From contig CAWEYF010000017.1 in the NCBI GenBank assembly GCA_963813235.1, positions 30,090-94,089 of the forward strand: a stretch of 64,000 bases of DNA, read 5' to 3'. Positions 21,203 through 46,614 of the stretch are shown piece after piece; position 1 is the stretch's first letter, and each line of letters begins with the position of its first letter. The notes under the pieces were generated by a model. The model saw only the letters and a list, made by a program, of their open reading frames with translations. It was not told where the DNA came from and made no database searches. Source of the DNA: Candidatus Aminicenantes bacterium (GTDB lineage: Bacteria; Acidobacteriota; Aminicenantia; Aminicenantales; Saccharicenantaceae). A program made the translations under genes and the position numbers.

Positions 21203-21279
21203 TGGCGTGCCTGAGAGGATTCGAACCTCCGACCTTTGGATCCGGAGTCCAACGCTCTATCCAGCTGAGCTACAGGCAC
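21203..21279 (-). tRNA. tRNA-Arg (anticodon CCG), CCA encoded
   Basis: The minus-strand sequence GTGCCTGTAGCTCAGCTGGATAGAGCGTTGGACTCCGGATCCAAAGGTCGGAGGTTCGAATCCTCTCAGGCACGCCA folds into a 77-nt cloverleaf. It has a 7-bp acceptor stem, a TTCGAAT T-loop and the anticodon loop CTCCGGA. Confidence 0.93.
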
Positions 21280-36839: not shown

Positions 36840-37865
36840 TCAGCCCTTTTTCTTATAGTCCGAGGGGACCTGGAAATCGGCCTCGCCCAGGTCGGCCGGG
36901 GCCAGCTCCAGGATCTCGACCCGGTAGGCCAGGGACGGCTCGGCGGGCCCTCCTTCGGCGGGCTTCTTCTTCAGGACCTTCTTGGCCAGGCCGCCGAGGA
37001 GACCCTTGGAGCCCCCCTCTTCCTCGGCCTCGCCCTTGGGCTTGTCGGAGGTCACCGTGTACTTTCCGTCGATGAGCACGGGATAGCCCTTGATCTTCTT
37101 CATCTCGGCGGCGGTCTTGGACGCATCGAACGAAGCGCCCGGGCGCCCCTTGGCCGCGTTCATGCTGTCGAGGAGAGACATCCAGTTCGTGCCGAGGACG
37201 TCCTGCTGGAGCTTTTCCTGGTCGAGCCCCACGGCCTTCATGTAGCCGCGGAAATATTTCGCTTCCTCTTTCTGCGCCCGGACGATATCGTCGGTGAGAG
37301 GCGTCGTGCGGACGTCGGTCTCGAGCTTGTTCGTCCCCTTCTCGCCGGTCCGGACGTTCTCCCAGTCCACGGTCCAGGTGACGACATACTTCTTCGTGGG
37401 GAAGCCGTTGACGTCCAGGGCCTCTCCGGTATCGTCCACGCGGAATTCGCTCTTGATGATGCGGATGTCGCTTTCGGCGGGCTTTTCGGCCTTCTCCCCG
37501 GCCGCTCCCTCTTCCGCTTTCTCCTCCGCCTTCTCCTCAGCGAACTTCTTGATCGGCGCGACGGTGTACTCCTTTTTCTTGGGGTCGAGCCGCGTGACGG
37601 TCAGCGCGGGAAGGTCGGTGATCTCGCCGAAACTGCCCGACCGGAGGACGGTCTTCCCGGCCAGGCCTCCCAGCAGGCCCTTGCCCTTGAAATCGTTCTG
37701 GGAATCGACCCATTGCCGCTCGGGCACGAGCCTCGAGGACTGGGTCATGGTCAGCTTGCCGAACCCTTTGAACGTGACCTCGGACCGGCTCTTCTTGACG
37801 ACGCCCGAAAAGGCCGGCGACGCGAGGAGGGCCAGGACGGTCAGGAATACGACGGACTTTTTCAT
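36840..37865 (-). CDS. secreted hypothetical protein
   Basis: Only the C-terminal 341 codons of ORF 36840..39227 look coding. ATG at 37865 follows GGAAGGAGA, with signal peptide MKKSVVFLTVLALLASPAFS. Confidence 0.65.
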   Translation of the reverse strand: MKKSVVFLTVLALLASPAFSGVVKKSRSEVTFKGFGKLTMTQSSRLVPERQWVDSQNDFKGKGLLGGLAGKTVLRSGSFGEITDLPALTVTRLDPKKKEYTVAPIKKFAEEKAEEKAEEGAAGEKAEKPAESDIRIIKSEFRVDDTGEALDVNGFPTKKYVVTWTVDWENVRTGEKGTNKLETDVRTTPLTDDIVRAQKEEAKYFRGYMKAVGLDQEKLQQDVLGTNWMSLLDSMNAAKGRPGASFDASKTAAEMKKIKGYPVLIDGKYTVTSDKPKGEAEEEGGSKGLLGGLAKKVLKKKPAEGGPAEPSLAYRVEILELAPADLGEADFQVPSDYKKKG

Positions 37866-38018
37866 CGAGGATCTCCTTCCGGAAAGGTAGCTGCGGTCAT
37901 CCCACTCCTTATAGAGGGAAAGGGCCCGGATGTCAACTCTCGCCCGAGGTCCGGCGGCTATGACGCGCGGCCCGTTTTGACGTATACTGGGGCCGAATCC
38001 GCCGAAAGGACGACGCCC

Positions 38019-39298
38019 GTGGCCAATATCGTGACGATCATCATGGCCGGCGGTCAGGGGAGCCGCCTCTACCCGCTGACCCGGGTCCGGAGCAAGCCGG
38101 CCGTTCCCATCGCCGGCCGATTCCGCCTCATCGACATCCCGATCAGCAACTGCATCCATTCGGGCTTCCGGAAGATCTTCGTCCTCACCCAGTTCGCCAG
38201 CGAGTCCCTCCACCGCCACATCTTCCTGACCTACCGGTTCGACAACTTCACCAAGGATTTCGTGACGATCCTGTCGGCCCAGCAGACGCTCGAGAACCGG
38301 AACTGGTACCAGGGGACGGCCGACGCCGTCCGGCAGAATCTGAAGTTCATCGAGAAGACGGGCGACCTGGTCCTCGTCCTGTCCGGGGACCATCTCTACC
38401 GGATGGACTACCGGAAGTTCGTGGAGTCGCACCTCAGGAAACGCGCCGAGATCAGCATCTCCGTGATCCCCGTCGGCCCGGACCGGGCCCCGGAACTGGG
38501 CGTCATGAAGGTCGACCGGCGCGGCCGGATCGTCGATTTCCTCGAAAAGCCGAAGACGCCCGAGGACCTCGAACGGATGAGGGTTCCCGAGGAGGTGTTC
38601 GCGCGGCTCGGCGACACCGCGGGCGGATCGACGCACCTGGCCTCGATGGGGATCTACGTCTTCGATTCGGACGTCCTCGCCGACCTCCTCGCCTCGACGA
38701 CCTACGAGGATTTCGGCCGGGAGGTCATCCCCTTCGCCATCAGGGAGCGGAAGGTCTTCGCCCACACCTTCGACGGCTACTGGGCGGACATCGGGACCAT
38801 CCCGAGCTTCTTCGATGCCCACATGGACCTCACGCGGCCCCTCCCCCGATTCAACTTTTACGACGAAGAACGGCCTATCTTCACCCACGCCCGGTTCCTC
38901 CCGGGCTCGAAGATCCTGAGCTCGGAGGTCGAGGAGTCCATCCTCTGCGAGGGGAGCATTGTCAGCCGTTCGACGATCCGGCAGTCCATCATCGGCGTCC
39001 GGTCGCGGATCGGCGAGAACTGCCGCATCGAACGGACCGTCATGATGGGGGCGGACTATTTCGAATCCGCGGAGGGCCTGAAGGCGAACCGGGCGAAGGG
39101 GATCCCCGACATCGGCCTCGGGAGGGACTGCGGAGGTCCGCAACGCCATCATCGACAAGAACGCCCGGATCGGCGCCGGGGTGAGGCTCGTCAACGCCCG
39201 GAAAAAAGTCGCCGACAGCTCCGACAACTACGCTCATCGTCGACGGCATCCTCGTCGTCCCGAAGAGCGCCGTCATCCCCGACGGTACGGTCATATAG
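38019..39298 (+). pseudogene. glgC: glucose-1-phosphate adenylyltransferase, two +1 frameshifts near the 3' end (about 39131 and 39232)
   Basis: MAGGQGSRLYPLT..SKPAVP..GRFRLIDIPISNC and the rest are collinear with GlgC. The tail reads GRDC|EVRNAIIDKNARIGAGV...DNY|LIVDGILVVPKSAVIPDGTVI* only after removing one g at each site. Confidence 0.85.
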
Positions 39299-39308
39299 TT
39301 CAAGCGGG

Positions 39309-40772
39309 TTAGCGGTTGGAGATCAAGGGTTGGGGCAGGGCCGGCCCGTCCTGTCCGATCGCTTTCAGAAAGAGGGCTTCGAGGTCGGCGCCGGGGCCCA
39401 GGTCCTCCCGCCGTTCCCGGAGGACGACCTCCCCCCGATGCACGACGATGATGTCGTCGTAGACCTTCCCGACCTCGGCGATGATATGGGAGCTCAGCAG
39501 GACGGCGCATCCCCCGGAAGCGAGTTCCCGGAAGATGCCGCGCGCGTTCCGGATGGAGACCGGGTCGAGGGCCGAAAACGGTTCGTCCGCGACGAAGAGC
39601 GCCGGAGAGAGGATGAGGCTCTGCAGGTAGGCGAATTTTTTCCGGTTCCCATGGGAATAGGTCGAGACCCTGCGCCGAAGGAGCTCCGGAGGGAACGGCA
39701 GGCGTTCGCACCATTCGAGGACGCTCCGGCGCGCCCGGTCCCGCGGGATCCCGTTGAGGAGCGCGGCGCAGTCCAGGAGCTCGTCGCCACGGACCCAGGG
39801 AAAGAACGACGGTTGTTCCGGGACATAACCGATGGTCCCGGCATTGATGTGGATCTTCCCTCCGTCCTTGCACAGGAAGCCCAGAGCGAGCCTGATGGCC
39901 GTGGACTTGCCCGCGCCATTCTCGCCGAGGAGCGCCGCGACCCGTCCGCCGTCAAGAGAGAAGCTGATATCGCGGACGGCCCGGACGGAGCCGAACCGCC
40001 GGGACAGACGCAGGACGGCCAGGACGGTCCGGCTCATCGTCCTCTCAGCTCCGACCTCCTGACGATCAGGACCTGAATAGAGGAACAGGGCCCCGGCGGC
40101 CAGGACGATCCAAGGCACGTGGCGGCGTAGGGGAACGGCGACGAGGATATTGGGAAGGATGCCGGCGAGAGCGACGAATCTCAGCTGCTCCCCCGTGCCG
40201 GAGAACGTGCCCGTCGCCAGGGCTTCAACGAATCGGTGCCCGCCCGAGGCGTCGACGATCAAGCCGACGAACGCCGCCGCCTGGGCGACGATGAGGACCA
40301 GGACGTTCGAACCTCCCTCGAGGAAGTGCCCCAGCAAGCCGCCGAGACCGATATAATAAACACCGACGCAAAGGGAGGCCGCAAACCCCCGCACGTCCGC
40401 GGGGCCGGCCCGTTGCGCTCCGAGACTGCCGGCTTGAATGGCCGCAAACACGACAAGGGCGTAGGCGACGCCTGCCAGAACGAGGGCCGCGTTCTTCCAG
40501 AGAATATGCCGTCTGAATCCGCCGCGGACGAAGAGGACGTTCTCGAGCGCGCCCCCGGCGGCTTCGCCCTTGAACATGTTCTGCGTCATGACCAGGAAAA
40601 CGTGGGGGAGAAGATAGAGGAAGATCTTCAACGCGGTCCCTCGGGACTCCCGGGCCCAGACAAAGGCGACGAGCGCCGGCAGGGACAGCGCCGACACGAG
40701 GGTCGCCGGCGACCTCCGCAGTTTCAGGACGGTGAGCCGGACCGCGAGCCGGCCGCGAGCTCGATCAGGCAT
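39309..40772 (-). CDS. ABC transporter, membrane domain fused in-frame to ATP-binding domain (ABC-2 type)
   Basis: N-terminal about 245 aa with about 6 TM segments. C-terminal NBD with Walker A GENGAGKST, signature YSHGNRKK and Walker B LFVADEP. No stop lies between the two parts. Confidence 0.7.
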   Translation of the reverse strand: MPDRARGRLAVRLTVLKLRRSPATLVSALSLPALVAFVWARESRGTALKIFLYLLPHVFLVMTQNMFKGEAAGGALENVLFVRGGFRRHILWKNAALVLAGVAYALVVFAAIQAGSLGAQRAGPADVRGFAASLCVGVYYIGLGGLLGHFLEGGSNVLVLIVAQAAAFVGLIVDASGGHRFVEALATGTFSGTGEQLRFVALAGILPNILVAVPLRRHVPWIVLAAGALFLYSGPDRQEVGAERTMSRTVLAVLRLSRRFGSVRAVRDISFSLDGGRVAALLGENGAGKSTAIRLALGFLCKDGGKIHINAGTIGYVPEQPSFFPWVRGDELLDCAALLNGIPRDRARRSVLEWCERLPFPPELLRRRVSTYSHGNRKKFAYLQSLILSPALFVADEPFSALDPVSIRNARGIFRELASGGCAVLLSSHIIAEVGKVYDDIIVVHRGEVVLRERREDLGPGADLEALFLKAIGQDGPALPQPLISNR

Positions 40773-41212
40773 CGTTGGGCCCTCCTCAGCCGCTCATCCA
40801 GGGCCAGATAATAATCGTCCCTATAGGCCTCGGTCCCCCCGGCCAGGATGATCTTGAAGGGAAGGAGGTCCACCCTGAACCGGCGGCGGATCCGCCCGCG
40901 TTCGTCCCGGACGACCGGGCAGGTCAAGGAATGTTTTTCGACGAATTTATCAATTTCGGCCTCGGTATCGCCGCTGATCCCCACAACCGCGGCGCCGAGC
41001 CCGTGTCGGCGGACGAACAGGTTCATCTCCAGCAGGTCGTCGAAACACGGGGTGCAGCCCGTCGAAAAGAACACGAGCAGGGCCGGCCTCCCATCGGCCG
41101 GGAGGGCTTCATCCAGGGAATGCGGGACGAATCGCCGGGTGCCACCCCATGTCCCGAGACAGGAAAAAACAAAGAGCACGGTCCAGCCCACAAGGGCCCC
41201 GGCCCGCCTCAT
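40724..41212 (-). CDS. TlpA/ResA-like thiol-disulfide oxidoreductase (thioredoxin fold, CxxC)
   Basis: Signal/anchor segment. ALLVFFSTGCTPC motif and overall redoxin layout. Confidence 0.7.
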   Translation of the reverse strand: MRRAGALVGWTVLFVFSCLGTWGGTRRFVPHSLDEALPADGRPALLVFFSTGCTPCFDDLLEMNLFVRRHGLGAAVVGISGDTEAEIDKFVEKHSLTCPVVRDERGRIRRRFRVDLLPFKIILAGGTEAYRDDYYLALDERLRRAQRCLIELAAGSRSGSPS

Positions 41213-42195
41213 CGGGATTCCGTCCTGAAGATCCTCAGGTTATTGTCATCGTCGACGGCATTGATCAGGTCGCCGTCCAGATCTATCCTCCTGACGATGG
41301 AAGGGAGCTCGACGAGCCCGTCGAGGCTCCCGTCGTGGCCGACGAGATAGACGCGCCGCCCGGGGCCGATATCCCCCTCGTCCGTGTAATCGGGAGCTAT
41401 AAGGCCGATCCGGCCCCCGTCGAAGGCCGCGTCCCAGCAGAAGGCCCGGAGGACCTTGTTGGGGCCCGGCAGCGGAAGGGTGATCGTTTTAAAGGGGTAA
41501 GCATCCGGAACCCCGATCGGGGCGAGCGGCATTCCCGATCCGTCGAAATGGCGGATCGCGTTCTCGTCGCTCTTCAGGACGACGTAGAGATCGTCGCTCC
41601 CTCCCCGGACCATGACGAGGAGGTTGCGGAACGCGTCATAGGTCCTATCCCCCGATACATGGCCCGGCATCCCTTCCCAAAGCAGCTTCCCCTCTCCCGT
41701 GTAGCAGTGGAGCATCGGCTCGGCTCCCCTGAGTCCCAAGGGAAGATGGGACACGACGATCTTTCCCCCATCCAGGGCGCAGATCTGGTCCGGGCTGTAC
41801 GGGACCTTGAAGCCGCCGAGATATTTCCCGGCTCCGTCCAGGACCTGGATCCTGTCGTTGAACTTGTCGGCAACGTAAAGACGGCCGTCCCGCGCGTCCA
41901 GATCGGCGGGGGCGGCGAACTCTCCGGGCCCCTGCCCTTTCCTCCCCAAAACCCTGAGAAAGACGCCGGCCCTGGAAAAAACCCGGACCTCGTGGGCCTC
42001 CGCATCGACGACGTAGACGGCATCGGCATCGTGAGATATGGAGACGGGCCGGCCGAAGGCGGCCTCGGCGTCGGTGCCATGATCGGTCTTGACGTCACGG
42101 GCCGTCAATCGCCGGAGGTCCGCCTTCCCCGCGGCGGGCGGACCCGCTGCGGCGATGACGGCGGCAAGGGCGGTCATGACGAAAGTGTACTTCAT
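41209..42195 (-). CDS. secreted NHL-repeat six-bladed beta-propeller protein
   Basis: Signal peptide. Repeated units such as GEFAAPADLDARDGRLYVADKFNDRIQVLD. GGAGG RBS. Its stop overlaps the next gene (ATGA). Confidence 0.75.
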   Translation of the reverse strand: MKYTFVMTALAAVIAAAGPPAAGKADLRRLTARDVKTDHGTDAEAAFGRPVSISHDADAVYVVDAEAHEVRVFSRAGVFLRVLGRKGQGPGEFAAPADLDARDGRLYVADKFNDRIQVLDGAGKYLGGFKVPYSPDQICALDGGKIVVSHLPLGLRGAEPMLHCYTGEGKLLWEGMPGHVSGDRTYDAFRNLLVMVRGGSDDLYVVLKSDENAIRHFDGSGMPLAPIGVPDAYPFKTITLPLPGPNKVLRAFCWDAAFDGGRIGLIAPDYTDEGDIGPGRRVYLVGHDGSLDGLVELPSIVRRIDLDGDLINAVDDDNNLRIFRTESR

Positions 42196-42228
42196 CGGGT
42201 ACCTCCATCGGACATCGGGAAGGACGTG

Positions 42229-42260
42229 AAAGGGGCCCCTTTATTCTCAGGGGCCCCTTC
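42229..42260 (-). promoter_or_regulatory. strong intercistronic hairpin (two copies of the 10-bp palindrome AGGGGCCCCT)
   Basis: AGGGGCCCCT at 42231-42240 and 42249-42258, separated by 8 nt. Lies between the small peptide gene and the NHL gene. Confidence 0.55.
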
Positions 42261-42266
42261 CCTTTT

Positions 42267-42485
42267 TCAGGCCAGCAAGAGGCACCTTCCCAGGCCGACG
42301 TCGCATACGGTCAAAAAGAGCGTCATCCTGACCCAGCCCACGTCCATGCCGAAAGCGTTGTTGCGGCACGTCCCGTAGTTCCTGAAGCACTCGGCGGAGT
42401 CGCGGGCTTCGGCCGCCCGGGGAAAGAACCAGACCGCGGAGAACACGACCAGCCCCGCAAGCGCGAGGGCAACGGCTTTTTTCAT
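42267..42485 (-). CDS. small secreted Cys-rich peptide (72 aa; predicted 45-aa mature form with CX6C...CX6C)
   Basis: ATG at 42485 follows a perfect AAGGAGG. The signal peptide is MKKAVALALAGLVVFSAVWFFPRAAEA. The mature part is RDSAECFRNYGTCRNNAFGMDVGWVRMTLFLTVCDVGLGRCLLLA. Confidence 0.6.
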   Translation of the reverse strand: MKKAVALALAGLVVFSAVWFFPRAAEARDSAECFRNYGTCRNNAFGMDVGWVRMTLFLTVCDVGLGRCLLLA

Positions 42486-42566
42486 CGGAACCTCCTTTCG
42501 GCAGATTCCTATGCAGGTTCCGTGCCCGGTCGCCTCCGGGAACGGTCGCGGATCATTCCCTTGATA

Positions 42567-42595
42567 ATAATAGGGTTCTTGGTGCACCGGTGGAA
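42567..42595 (-). promoter_or_regulatory. candidate sigma70 promoter (TTCCAC-N17-TATTAT)
   Basis: On the minus strand, -35 lies at 42590-42595 and -10 at 42567-42572, about 80 nt upstream of the peptide gene. Confidence 0.35.
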
Positions 42596-42726
42596 GCGGC
42601 GCCCGGTCTCGGGGCGGGCCATGGGCGCTCGAAATGAGACGCGGTCTCTAACCTGTTCGAAGACCACGGGTTAGGCGGGCGGTAGAAGGCACAAGATGTG
42701 AACCGGCGACCGGAGACGGAGGCCTG

Positions 42727-44394: not shown

Positions 44395-44595
44395 GAGCGT
44401 CTCCTCGACGTTTCGATGATATCATACCCCCCGGGGGGACTTCCACACGCCCTAAAAAAGCTGTTGACGCGGCCGGAATTCCTGGTGTAAGGTATTGACA
44501 GGTTTTCAAGGAAAGGGACCCGGCCGGATCCCGTGGGCCCGACTCGGGCGACGGGGCCGGATACGGGCCATGGGTTTTATCGGGCCGGGGCCGCC

Positions 44596-46614
44596 ATGAA
44601 CCAGAGACCGATCCTCGTTCTGAATCCGAATCCTATAGAGGCCGATATCCTGTCGAAGCTTTGCCAGCTTTACGGGACGGTCATTGCCGCGTCCTCCTTG
44701 GAGGCGGCCGCAGTCCTGCCGGGAGTGTCGGATGCCCTGATGGCCGTCCTCGACGCGTCGGCCGCGATGCAGCCTGCCGCCCGAAGCCTATTCGGCAAGG
44801 CGACGGCCGTCATCATCACCGGCCGGGACGACGCAAGGCTCCGTTCCCTGGCCCGGGACTGGCCTTCCGACTGGTACGTCGACACGTTCGCCCTGTCCGT
44901 GCCCGTCCAGGACCCCGCCCAGTTCACCAAGTCGGTCGAACGGGCGCTCAACCACGTTGCGATGAGCGCGGAGGTCGGCACCCTGCGGAGCGCCCTCGAC
45001 ATCCAGGGGGCCAAGGTCCGTGACGTCTATGCCGAGATCCGGGAGATCAAGAGCCTCATCAACGAGAACTTCTTCAAGGAGCTCGAAAAGCGGGTGGCGA
45101 TCGAGGCCAAGTACGTCTGGTTCCGGAAGGAACGGCAGAGGATCGAGAAGGTCCTCCGCAAGATCTACGCGGCCAACGACGTCTCGAGCCTTCTCGACAT
45201 CTCCGCGGACTTCAAGGATATCGTCCAGGCCTCAGGGGCCTCGATCTACATCCTGGAGGAGAACGAGACGCTCGGCCGGTACCTCAAGCCGCTGGTCTGG
45301 GACGATACTTTTCTGACCCATCCCGAGTCCCTGAGGTACGTCGCCCGCCTCGACGCCCAGGACTTCGCCGCAACCGTCGCCCTCCACGGCCGGGAGGTCA
45401 ACATCACCGAGCTCTCCTTCGACCGGCGCCTCTCGCGGAGGTACGTCGAGCACCTTCGGACGCCGCTGAAGAGCCTGTTGGCCGTCCCCATCCGCTACGA
45501 CACGGAGGTCATCGGCGTCGTCGAGATCTACAACAAGACCTCCGGGGGAAAGCCCGTCCGGGCCGGGTTCTCGAGGGAGGACCAGGAGATCCTCCGGGGG
45601 CTGTCCGAACACATCGCCATCGCGATGACGAAATTGAACCTCATCCAGTACGACGCCCTGACCGGCCTGCTTCGGCCCGACCCCTTCTTCGAAAAGGTCG
45701 TCCGGAAGATCAATTCCCGGGGCAAGCGCCGGCGCGAGGAAGGCTCCTCGGCCCTGGTCATGGGGGACGTGGACTGGTTCAAGAACTACAACGACCGGAA
45801 CGGCCACGAGGCGGGGAACAAGCTCCTGCGCGAGCTGGCCGGCGTCATGAAGGACTCGATCCGCGAGGAGGACCTCGTCTGCCGCTACGGCGGGGAGGAA
45901 TTCCTCTTCTTTTTGACGGGAGTCAAGAACCTCGAGGACGCCTGCCTGTTCACCGACCGCATCCGGAAGAACGTCGAAGAGCACTATTTCGAGTTCCAGG
46001 AGTTCCAGCCCGGGAACAACCTGACCATGTCCTTCGGCGTGACGATGTTCCCGCCGCACGCGACCGGACAGGCCGCGGACGTCGCCAAGGCCGACCTGAG
46101 GCTCCTGGCCGGGGAGGCGGACATGGCCATGGCCGAGGCCAAGGGGAAGAGATCGTTCGAGCCGGGGACCGGCACCGACGAACGGGTCCTCACGAAGAAC
46201 AAGGTCTGTGGTTTCTCCCGGGAACAGGCTGAGGAACGGCGGGGCGGGATCATCCGGACGTACCGGGAGACGTCTTACCGGGAAAAGAGGAAGTACGAGA
46301 GATACCGCACGTCCACCCTCATGATGGTCCAGGAGAACGGCGGGTTCAAGGTGGCGAAAACGGTCAACATGAGCCTCGGAGGGGCGAGGATCCTTTCCGA
46401 TGCCCGGCTTCCCGTCGCCAAGACGATCGGCCTGATCCTCGTCCTTGGCAACAAGGCGAACCGCATCGCGAGCGACGTCGTCTATTCGAACAGGGCCGGG
46501 GGGGAATCCCCTTATTTTTATTCGGGGCTGAAATTCAAGGACCTGTCGCCCGCCGACCAGAAGGCGCTCGAGGAATACTTCGAGTCGTTACGGAAGGCCG
46601 GGTCGCTCAACTGA
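44596..46614 (+). CDS. diguanylate cyclase with receiver-like, GAF and C-terminal PilZ domains
   Basis: RYGGEEFLFF (GGEEF), a GAF-like region (VPIRYDTEVIGVVEIYN), and a PilZ-like C-terminus (RKYERYR...NMSLGGARI). The ORF opens at 44533 and the ATG at 44596 was chosen. Confidence 0.85.
   Translation: MNQRPILVLNPNPIEADILSKLCQLYGTVIAASSLEAAAVLPGVSDALMAVLDASAAMQPAARSLFGKATAVIITGRDDARLRSLARDWPSDWYVDTFALSVPVQDPAQFTKSVERALNHVAMSAEVGTLRSALDIQGAKVRDVYAEIREIKSLINENFFKELEKRVAIEAKYVWFRKERQRIEKVLRKIYAANDVSSLLDISADFKDIVQASGASIYILEENETLGRYLKPLVWDDTFLTHPESLRYVARLDAQDFAATVALHGREVNITELSFDRRLSRRYVEHLRTPLKSLLAVPIRYDTEVIGVVEIYNKTSGGKPVRAGFSREDQEILRGLSEHIAIAMTKLNLIQYDALTGLLRPDPFFEKVVRKINSRGKRRREEGSSALVMGDVDWFKNYNDRNGHEAGNKLLRELAGVMKDSIREEDLVCRYGGEEFLFFLTGVKNLEDACLFTDRIRKNVEEHYFEFQEFQPGNNLTMSFGVTMFPPHATGQAADVAKADLRLLAGEADMAMAEAKGKRSFEPGTGTDERVLTKNKVCGFSREQAEERRGGIIRTYRETSYREKRKYERYRTSTLMMVQENGGFKVAKTVNMSLGGARILSDARLPVAKTIGLILVLGNKANRIASDVVYSNRAGGESPYFYSGLKFKDLSPADQKALEEYFESLRKAGSLN

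Follow-up and report, generated by a model that had tools for sequence, protein, structure and literature searches.

A conserved hutU-adjacent operon of Candidatus Aminicenantes encoding a predicted Sec-exported twin-CX6C peptide, an NHL propeller, a TlpA-like protein, and an ABC pair

The window analyzed here is a 64,000-nucleotide (64-kb) stretch of contig CAWEYF010000017.1 from a Candidatus Aminicenantes bacterium. On its minus strand, downstream of hutU, lies an operon that begins with a small gene for a precursor peptide with a signal sequence and four cysteines in its mature part, and that continues with genes for an exported NHL beta-propeller, a thioredoxin-fold protein with a CxxC motif, and an ABC permease and ATPase (Table 1). 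A preliminary description of this DNA proposed a four-gene, peptide-centered layout on this strand, and each open reading frame (ORF) lies where it had been placed (39309-42587 carries all four), with the overlaps reported at 41209-41212 (ATGA) and 40724-40772 (49 nt) also present; the same overlaps recur in relatives. The peptide-centered operon of that description therefore stands, whereas its fused ABC transporter does not, because the fusion results from a 1-nt insertion. The operon is real, conserved, and undescribed, and it stands out by its NHL propeller, the sigma-54 control predicted for it, its Sec leader, and its restriction to Aminicenantes. In kind, it combines a ribosomal peptide, a thiol-disulfide enzyme, and an ABC pump, with functions read from sequence. 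The match to a glycocin scaffold, the sigma-54 promoter, the stem-loop, the propeller-thioredoxin fusions, and a second, larger peptide family are additions to the earlier account.

The precursor starts with a tripartite signal peptide made up of KK, an 18-residue hydrophobic core, and P-R-A-A-E-A followed by R, with cleavage predicted between AEA and R. In the mature peptide, C33, C40, C61, and C68 form a CX6C...CX6C pattern. The sequence bears out the Sec-type signal, the 45-residue mature part, and the cysteine pattern described previously, as well as the hydrophobic C-terminal half, as evidenced by a Kyte-Doolittle value of 1.71 for helix 2 (residues 54-72). AlphaFold2 models residues 30-45 as a helix, 46-50 as a loop, and 51-71 as a second helix, and the pLDDT exceeds 90 across residues 31-60. 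The first helix is polar and the second hydrophobic, and the cysteines are spaced i/i+7 on each predicted helix. Only M1, the four cysteines, and L58 are invariant across 37 peptide sequences; R41, T59, and D62 are at least 90% conserved, and R41 and D62 flank the inner cysteine pair (C40/C61). The conserved positions follow heptad-like i/i+3/i+4/i+7 stripes (33, 37, 40, and 44; 51, 55, 58, 61/62, 65, and 68/69). Loop positions 46-50 read G/N, S/M/L, D, V/A, and G, with no conserved S, T, or C.

In relatives, gene calling recovers the 72-aa protein in 12 clusters at 72-97% identity, and pairwise dN/dS values of about 0.2-0.4 place it under purifying selection, so that the small ORF of the preliminary description is indeed conserved. 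Moreover, a peptide profile run against 1.84 billion representative proteins recovered about 30 clusters (50% identity) with no other credible match, and GAAAGGAGG is kept as the ribosome-binding site (RBS) of the peptide gene in nearly all inspected loci. The peptide is thus a free-standing gene and not a fragment of an ordinary membrane protein. That the small ORF is no gene at all and that its neighbors are functionally unrelated, as the lack of Pfam and NCBIfam matches for the peptide might suggest, has a negligible probability; such an annotation artifact is refuted by the dN/dS values, the invariant cysteines, the conserved RBS, promoter, and length, and a co-occurrence with the propeller of 100%. 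A 106-aa ORF with a GTG start (42267-42587) was rejected as the precursor because relatives conserve the 72-aa length, the RBS sits ahead of the ATG, and the longer ORF contains the sigma-54 promoter.

Database searches with the peptide returned little. Pfam gave no match, NVEALA included (E <= 0.1), NCBIfam gave only a sub-threshold match to PhrA that begins inside the signal peptide, and PADLOC gave nothing. A Foldseek search of the peptide model against the PDB found nothing below E = 2.5 for this very small fold; disulfide-rich helical hairpins (the Jug r 2 leader and neurotoxin B-IV) appeared only at an E of about 10.

The propeller scores 44.4 bits against Pfam DUF5128 (cut-off 22.9) and 24.6 bits against NHL (cut-off 20), and its AlphaFold2 model (pLDDT 90.9) has six four-stranded blades; the claim of a six-bladed NHL propeller is upheld by both. 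Its family is sharply bounded, with scores that run from 742 down to 199 bits and then fall to 112 for generic NHL proteins. Structure matches are confined to generic ligand-binding NHL domains (such as Thin, Brat, and TRIM71) at a TM of about 0.6, there is a weak match to the Bacteroides fragilis exported protein 4raa, all invariant residues belong to the NHL repeat, and no cysteine is conserved in the family. An enzymatic role for the propeller was rejected, given that it has no conserved cysteines or catalytic-type residues and that PAL, virginiamycin lyase, and similar enzymes rank below plain NHL binding domains.

The thioredoxin-fold protein matches AhpC-TSA at 43.9 bits (cut-off 26), which, together with its CxxC motif, agrees with its earlier description. 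Its hydrophobic N terminus is either a signal peptide or a lipobox, and several loci have a clear lipobox. The stretch VFFS..CxxC(F/W/Y)(D/E)(D/E)L is kept in 17 of 17 loci, with a variable dipeptide between the cysteines (TP, PV, PA, PS, HV, QV, or PT). Matches to NCBIfam models fall below the cut-offs for ResA (33.9 versus 170), StoA (32.5 versus 210), and MauD (18.9 versus 188.6). By its fold, CxxC motif, and export signal or tether, all read from sequence, the protein is of the extracytoplasmic TlpA/ResA-like kind.

A direct connection between these two proteins comes from in-frame propeller-thioredoxin fusions in which the signal peptide of the thioredoxin part is deleted. They are seen in P0043 (L025 791-2257), P0047, and L015 (6196-7518)/L030 and come from at least three independent assemblies. 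The fusions argue that both proteins act together in the periplasm on one substrate, for which the obligate neighbor with its four invariant cysteines is, from sequence, the obvious candidate.

The order hutU, peptide, NHL propeller, CxxC thioredoxin-like protein, 245-aa permease, and ABC ATPase of about 240 aa is found in about 25 species-level genomes and in metagenome contigs, with the peptide gene always first in the operon and hutU usually upstream. All loci are labeled Candidatus Aminicenantes or are evidently mislabeled metagenome-assembled genomes that belong to that clade. A hidden Markov model of the peptide, run over all ORFs of 108 fetched loci, detected the peptide in every propeller-family locus with upstream DNA; the apparent exceptions (L024, L035, and L041) are loci whose contig ends no more than 330 nt from the propeller. 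The four-gene neighborhood and the conserved, peptide-centered operon of the preliminary description are thus confirmed by gene order across about 25 Aminicenantes species, and no propeller locus of the family with enough upstream DNA lacks the peptide. Propeller identity to the window tracks hutU identity (Spearman rho 0.64, p = 5e-4, 25 loci), and the cluster diverges much faster than hutU, with 37-45% identity for the propeller versus 79-85% for hutU in most of the more distant loci. In the divergent lineage L021/L022, the peptide, propeller, and thioredoxin-like genes occur in a different neighborhood, without ABC genes. No mobile-element genes were found among the called neighbors of the loci, and Rfam reported no RNA family within the operon. 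Assignment to an anti-phage defense system was rejected, since PADLOC gave generic ATPase matches only. Two metatranscriptomes contain contigs of relatives with 85-95% identity across the operon, at a uniform low depth that possibly includes DNA.

Upstream of the peptide gene, a conserved block is predicted from its sequence to be a sigma-54 promoter with -24 and -12 elements, which would place the transcript start near 42501. The pattern GGCAYN5YTGCW has a single match in the 64-kb window, where 0.57 would be expected by chance. When the 245-nt stretches that precede the ATG are aligned for 14 loci, the block GGCA(C/T)-N5-(C/T)TGC is invariant, and the motif starts 40-42 nt ahead of the peptide ATG in nearly all 33 matching loci of this peptide family (family 1). 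A sigma-54 match also precedes the peptide genes in loci L055, L069, and L089 of a second family, hutU-adjacent loci among them. No enhancer-binding protein (GAFTGA-type) is encoded within the 64-kb window. About 40-60 nt upstream of the -24 element is the A/T-rich TATCAA box. The integration host factor (IHF) consensus is WATCAA-N4-TTR, and the box is tentatively a candidate IHF-like bending site. Farther upstream, a palindrome of the TGTG..CACA type occurs at a matching place in most of the 14 aligned regions; it is, again tentatively, a candidate site for the enhancer-binding protein or a hutU terminator. Together, these two putative elements may fit the usual layout of IHF and activator sites.

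The stem-loop past the peptide stop codon is conserved in structure and not in sequence. The window's fragment folds at -34.5 kcal/mol (z = -3.3), and a stem of 9-14 bp is present at the same position in 15 of 15 loci folded, with unrelated sequences in divergent lineages. Its weak U-tail and the tightly packed downstream genes, two junctions of which overlap, suggest that it is probably a partial terminator or an mRNA-stabilizing element that would enrich the peptide message. A single metatranscriptome contig covers the junction from the 3' end of the peptide gene to the 5' end of the propeller gene, and its intergenic sequence is divergent. Because the stem GGGGCCCC (42230-42259, plus strand) is self-complementary, on the plus strand the same hairpin has the form of a terminator followed by a T5 tail, and no credible plus-strand gene ends there.

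The preliminary description read 39309-40772 as a fused ABC protein with membrane and ATPase domains, and in the window this stretch is indeed a single 487-aa ORF with a hydrophobic N-terminal half and an ABC_tran C-terminal half. However, the single frame stems from a 1-nt insertion unique to this assembly. An extra base at about 40078-40080, within TTCCTCTATTCAGG (40078-40082), shifts the permease's last 15 codons into the ATPase frame, and the conserved permease C terminus, IQVLIVRRSELRGR followed by a stop codon, is still readable in the window's other frame. Relatives compared at this junction have a 245-aa gene and a separate gene of about 240 aa that overlap by ATGA, and the extra base is absent from three independent contigs, two of DNA (one run; one about 97% identical) and one from a metatranscriptome. 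On this sequence comparison, the apparent fusion is an assembly error or a very recent strain-specific change and not a feature of the system. Frameshift-like disruptions also occur in relatives, at L010 (8001-8276 and 9275-11203), in hutU of L001/L009, and in P0140, P0156, and P0159: the L010 peptide ORF extends to 91 aa, hutU is split in L001/L009, and other peptide variants are truncated. Such indel-type disruptions in the assemblies of relatives make an error the likelier explanation for the window.

In the permease family, ABC2_membrane_4 matches weakly and below threshold in six of seven members (best E 0.0013), NCBIfam gives no match, a PDB search gives nothing meaningful, and no cysteine is conserved. 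The ATPase scores 63.6 bits against ABC_tran and shows no domains other than ABC_tran/AAA. Its best NCBIfam matches, to models of the lantibiotic-protection, DrrA, and GldA types, all score well short of the cut-offs (for TIGR03740, the lantibiotic-protection model, 107.1 bits against a cut-off of 309.75), so that its resemblance to LanFEG-type transporters, judged from sequence, is at the superfamily level only.

Table 1. Coordinates of the operon's features in the window and of second-family peptide regions in other loci
Feature	Coordinates	Strand	Remarks
Peptide precursor gene, 72 aa	42267..42485	(-)	ORF, conservation, dN/dS, structure model
Signal peptide, aa 1-27	42405-42485	(-)	
Mature 45-aa twin-CX6C peptide, aa 28-72	42270-42404	(-)	
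Cysteine codons	42387-42389, 42366-42368, 42303-42305, 42282-42284	(-)	
RBS AAAGGAGG	42491..42498	(-)	5 nt ahead of ATG (ATG at 42485)
Predicted sigma-54 type promoter GGCAC-N5-CTGCA (GG -24, GC -12)	42512..42526	(-)	GGCACggaacCTGCA; 27-41 nt upstream of ATG
A/T-rich box with TATCAA, candidate IHF-like bending site	42551..42572	(-)	Conserved (t)atcaa / tatcag block, upstream alignment
Short palindrome TCACAtctTGTGcc	42688..42701	(-)	26 nt past hutU stop
GC-rich stem-loop, 13-bp stem, weak U-tail	42228..42261	(-)	Directly past peptide stop codon
Exported six-bladed NHL/DUF5128 beta-propeller, 328 aa, signal peptide about aa 1-24	41209..42195	(-)	
Extracytoplasmic TlpA/ResA-like thioredoxin-fold protein, 162 aa	40724..41212	(-)	CxxC C53-T-P-C56 at 41045-41056
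ABC-2-like permease gene, 245 aa in relatives, about 6-7 membrane segments	40034..40772	(-)	
ABC ATPase, 242 aa	39309..40037	(-)	Own ATG at 40035-40037
Family-2 peptide regions (other loci)	L045 133-711, L046 4167-4755, L067 4320-4919, L072 2361-3044, L055 222-735, L069 4071-4565, L089 4215-4688		

Paralogous NHL-propeller loci in other Aminicenantes reveal the second peptide family (family 2). Here, small upstream ORFs with signal peptides carry C-x6-C...C-x6-C patterns, often in tandem pairs, and share the motif C..G[YWF].FC..[YF]. The 'B' peptides are 72-83 aa long and the 'A' peptides 79-103 aa; in L045, L046, L067, and L072, the 'A' peptides have a Gly-zipper-like hydrophobic hairpin between both CX6C motifs. 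The L069 and L089 loci lie directly downstream of hutU, and they and L055 have a divergent gene for a CxxC thioredoxin-like protein after the propeller; no ABC genes are present in the family-2 loci. A profile-profile comparison relates the two peptide families with 93% probability (E = 3e-7) and all four cysteines aligned. Family 2 comprises at least 140 clusters, and its named entries are all called 'hypothetical protein' except for two generic JGI membrane-protein labels. It is possible, though we say so with some doubt, that Aminicenantes encode a hitherto unrecognized superfamily of Sec-exported, disulfide-stapled, twin-CX6C hairpin peptides, divided into two or more families, one of about 30 clusters and one of at least 140, each with a dedicated NHL-propeller/thioredoxin 'foldase' pair and with sigma-54-switched copies next to hutU. 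Three family-2 loci also have a gene for a GT2-family glycosyltransferase of 407-409 aa about 300-370 nt upstream of the peptide genes and on the same strand (L067 2728-3951, L046 2617-3846, and L072 802-2028). This enzyme resembles mannosylglycerate and glucosyl-3-phosphoglycerate synthases (MGS/GpgS-like), and a PDB sequence search gave no SunS-type match for it.

Comparison with known systems shows that the peptide has a glycocin-like scaffold. Sublancin 168, glycocin F, pallidocin, and thurandacin are likewise helix-loop-helix peptides of about 37-45 aa with two CX6C motifs, the cysteine pairing being predicted in our case. The disulfides of glycocin F pair residues 5-28 and 12-21. Those of sublancin, Cys7-36 and Cys14-29, are nested between its two CX6C motifs (PMC5974097). 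Glycocin clusters encode thioredoxin-like proteins and ABC transporters, and the disulfides are essential for glycocin activity (PMC6405829); a thioredoxin-family protein and an ABC transporter are encoded here too. Nevertheless, three defining features of glycocins failed to appear. The SunS-like glycosyltransferase is missing from the operon and from about 40 related loci, the loop has no conserved residue in place of the Ser/Thr/Cys glycosylation site, and the double-glycine (GG) leader and C39-peptidase ABC exporter (SunT type) are replaced by a Sec/SPase-I signal with an AxA site and by an ABC-2 permease and ATPase without C39. Also, glycocin clusters have no NHL propeller, whereas this operon has one together with a predicted sigma-54-dependent promoter; glycocin hosts are Firmicutes, whereas this host is a probable diderm of the Acidobacteriota/Aminicenantes; and the spacer between the two cysteine motifs is 20 residues versus 8-14 in glycocins. 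No sequence similarity to glycocins was detected.

Other known systems share parts of the layout. Sec-dependent class II bacteriocins with ABC immunity include lactococcin 972 and enterocin P, and lantibiotic producers have dual LanI/LanFEG immunity. The operon resembles such loci in general logic only: a Sec-pathway peptide is encoded next to an ABC pump of the lantibiotic-protection/DrrA type, and the propeller could, by analogy, take the peptide-sequestering role of LanI. However, neither the peptides nor the immunity proteins of those systems are homologous to the proteins here, the ABC pair is dispensable in some lineages, and the locus is chromosomal and vertically inherited. Bacteroidota possess uncharacterized DUF5128/'six-bladed beta-propeller' neighborhoods with small NVEALA-type peptides, in which, as here, the gene for a small exported peptide immediately precedes that of the propeller; in contrast to those, our peptide has no NVEALA match, and our propeller forms a sharply separated clade. 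A literature search, within the library available to it, found nothing on DUF5128, NVEALA, or Aminicenantes with NHL, so that no function can be carried over from that family.

Eukaryotic NHLRC2 and bacterial thioredoxin-NHL fusions combine a thioredoxin-like domain with an NHL propeller. The same two domains are paired in the operon as adjacent genes (fused in P0043, P0047, and L015), with the domain order of NHLRC2 reversed relative to the propeller-then-thioredoxin order here; in a PDB sequence search with P0043, NHLRC2 was not among the 15 matches. Finally, the methylamine dehydrogenase genes encode the MauB propeller, the cysteine-rich small subunit MauA, the TlpA-like MauD, and the membrane protein MauE. 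That cluster likewise unites a small, cysteine-rich, exported polypeptide with a propeller and a TlpA-like protein, and there is a weak match to MauD (E 8e-4). It differs in the seven blades of its propeller versus six NHL blades, in its MauG/heme gene and the Trp pair for TTQ, neither of which is found here (W51 varies), and in its Tat signal, where our peptide has a Sec signal.

We tentatively propose, with slightly less than even confidence, that the operon produces a Sec-exported, disulfide-stapled, membrane-active peptide served by a dedicated propeller/oxidoreductase maturation pair and by an ABC pump for self-protection or export. Promoter firing and Sec export with cleavage rest on sequence features of the locus: an activator of the enhancer-binding class would fire the sigma-54 promoter, the peptide would be made only then, and the precursor would be exported via Sec and cleaved after AEA. 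For propeller capture, disulfide formation, the pump, and the target, we infer the steps that follow. The hairpin would be stapled by the nested disulfides C33-C68 and C40-C61, as in glycocins. The propeller would serve as a peptide-binding module that captures the half-hydrophobic hairpin, maybe keeping it soluble in the periplasm, and presents it to the tethered or fused TlpA-like domain, which would form or proofread the disulfides. The stem-loop could allow more transcript of the peptide gene than of the accessory genes to build up. The ABC-2 permease and ATPase of this sub-lineage may clear the hydrophobic peptide from the producer's membrane, either for export and release or for LanFEG-like self-protection. 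The end product would be a membrane-active extracellular peptide that is antagonistic at the membranes of other cells, or else a signal.

Several points weigh against this proposal. By analogy with glycocins, we infer the nested pairing itself from the cysteine spacing and the predicted fold only. TlpA/ResA-type proteins are mostly reductants, although TlpA-like oxidases exist, such as streptococcal SdbA. A DsbB/VKOR-like re-oxidant and an outer-membrane export component are both missing from the cluster. Neither L021/L022 nor the CxxC-carrying family-2 loci L055, L069, and L089 have the ABC pair, which argues that it is accessory; judged from this gene content, the core of the system is the peptide or peptides, the propeller, and the thioredoxin-like protein, with the ABC pair an addition in the window's lineage. 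The depths of the metatranscriptome contigs show no excess of the peptide transcript, and one contig reaches upstream of the predicted transcript start, in RNA data that may include DNA. Moreover, sequence comparison indicates vertical inheritance at a fixed chromosomal site beside hutU across an order-level clade, with rapid sequence turnover. Inheritance at one such site is more in keeping with a housekeeping function in the envelope than with a typical bacteriocin; the 'bacteriocin-like' reading of the preliminary description is plausible, and this mode of inheritance is unusual for bacteriocin loci.

An envelope role is accordingly the main rival, one that we regard as rather unlikely. The peptide would then be a small protein, inducible and abundant, that resides in the periplasm or is associated with the membrane, for example in a stress response or a surface structure, and that forms a stable complex with the propeller; the thioredoxin-fold protein would be no more than an assembly factor, and the ABC-2 pump would serve an unrelated lipid or glycan. 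Beyond the co-divergence with hutU at a fixed locus in about 25 species (rho 0.64), such a role would suit a hydrophobic C-terminal helix that could sit in the membrane and a cluster with no outer-membrane exporter and no mobile-element genes among its called neighbors. Pilins, PspA, and ZraP are examples of small exported or envelope proteins in sigma-54 regulons. Such regulons are enriched in cell-exterior functions (PMC3162934), a bias that also favors an envelope component. Nevertheless, the cluster proteins evolve far faster than hutU, as evidenced by the identities given above for most of the more distant loci, and paralogous copies and tandem peptide pairs occur within genomes. The stem-loop after the first gene likewise argues for excess product and not for a 1:1 subunit.

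Chemistry rather than localization separates the proposed stapled peptide from two further readings. TlpA, ResA, and CcmG are typically extracytoplasmic reductants that prepare cysteine ligands, as for ScoI/CoxB and apocytochrome c, and this reductase habit, together with the weak NCBIfam similarity to ResA, StoA, and MauD, would allow a thiol or metal system. In such a system, which we consider improbable, the cysteines would be kept reduced by the TlpA-like protein and would bind metal at two bis-Cys sites across the hairpin or shuttle reducing equivalents in the periplasm, with the propeller and ABC proteins for delivery or export. The conserved D62 and R41 adjoin the cysteines, and the hosts are sediment anaerobes, in which disulfide formation is less favored. 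However, i/i+7 cysteines on two packed helices have the classic geometry of a disulfide staple, seen in glycocins and in CHCH and alpha-hairpinin proteins, and there are no His, Met, or additional Cys ligands, no metal-related neighbors, and no fixed dipeptide within the CxxC motif of the thioredoxin-like protein. The other reading, a true glycocin-type ribosomally synthesized and posttranslationally modified peptide whose glycosyltransferase is encoded elsewhere in the genome, draws on the twin-CX6C hairpin scaffold and on the GT2 gene upstream of the paralogous family-2 loci L046, L067, and L072. We judge it very unlikely, because none of about 40 family-1 loci has a glycosyltransferase, no Ser, Thr, or Cys is conserved in the loop between the helices, and the leader is of the Sec and not the GG type, with no C39 peptidase domain. 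The family-2 enzyme, being MGS/GpgS-like without a SunS-type match, was rejected as a SunS-like glycosyltransferase, and synteny on both sides of these loci suggests simple neighborhood conservation.

If the superfamily suggested above is real, it would constitute a new class of ribosomal peptide system and would give a DUF5128/NHL propeller its first assigned role, namely, substrate recognition for a peptide-specific thiol-disulfide oxidoreductase. If the proposal of a stapled, membrane-active peptide is correct, the glycocin scaffold of Firmicutes gains an unglycosylated, Sec-exported counterpart in an uncultured sediment phylum, which would widen the range of stable, compact scaffolds. It would also provide bacterial NHL/DUF5128 propellers with a concrete function. 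For the thioredoxin-NHL pairing, which is also found in NHLRC2, this would mean that the propeller binds and the thioredoxin domain carries out the thiol chemistry. The operon would, in addition, be an example of a peptide operon gated by sigma-54 and an enhancer-binding protein. Although the host is uncultured, the 45-residue peptide should be easily synthesized or expressed.

The remainder of the window offers several minor observations. To the left of a tRNA-Arg(CCG) gene (21203-21279, minus strand), in window positions 1-21200, the G+C content falls from about 64% to about 52%, and the ORFs are short with low GC3. Genes sampled there encode TPR, ankyrin-repeat, amidohydrolase, SPFH/Band 7, LysE, and AhpC/TSA-like proteins, with no integrase among them; the shift may mark a genomic island, a mis-join, or just a change of region. 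Downstream of the operon, at 36840-37862 (minus strand) and 37990-39230 (plus strand), are two genes: a convergent glgC-like NTP-transferase gene, which sits inside a spurious 1167-aa plus-strand ORF, and a gene for a conserved exported protein. The latter protein, of about 340 aa, is rich in Lys and Glu and has no Pfam match, and a Pfam-less gene of 338-339 aa occupies the same position in L001 and L002. On the other side, divergent from hutU, a 693-aa protein is encoded at 44533-46614 (plus strand). Its counterpart in L001 has GAF, GGDEF, and PilZ domains, which suggests a role in c-di-GMP signaling for a protein that is not a sigma-54 activator and has no evident link to the operon.

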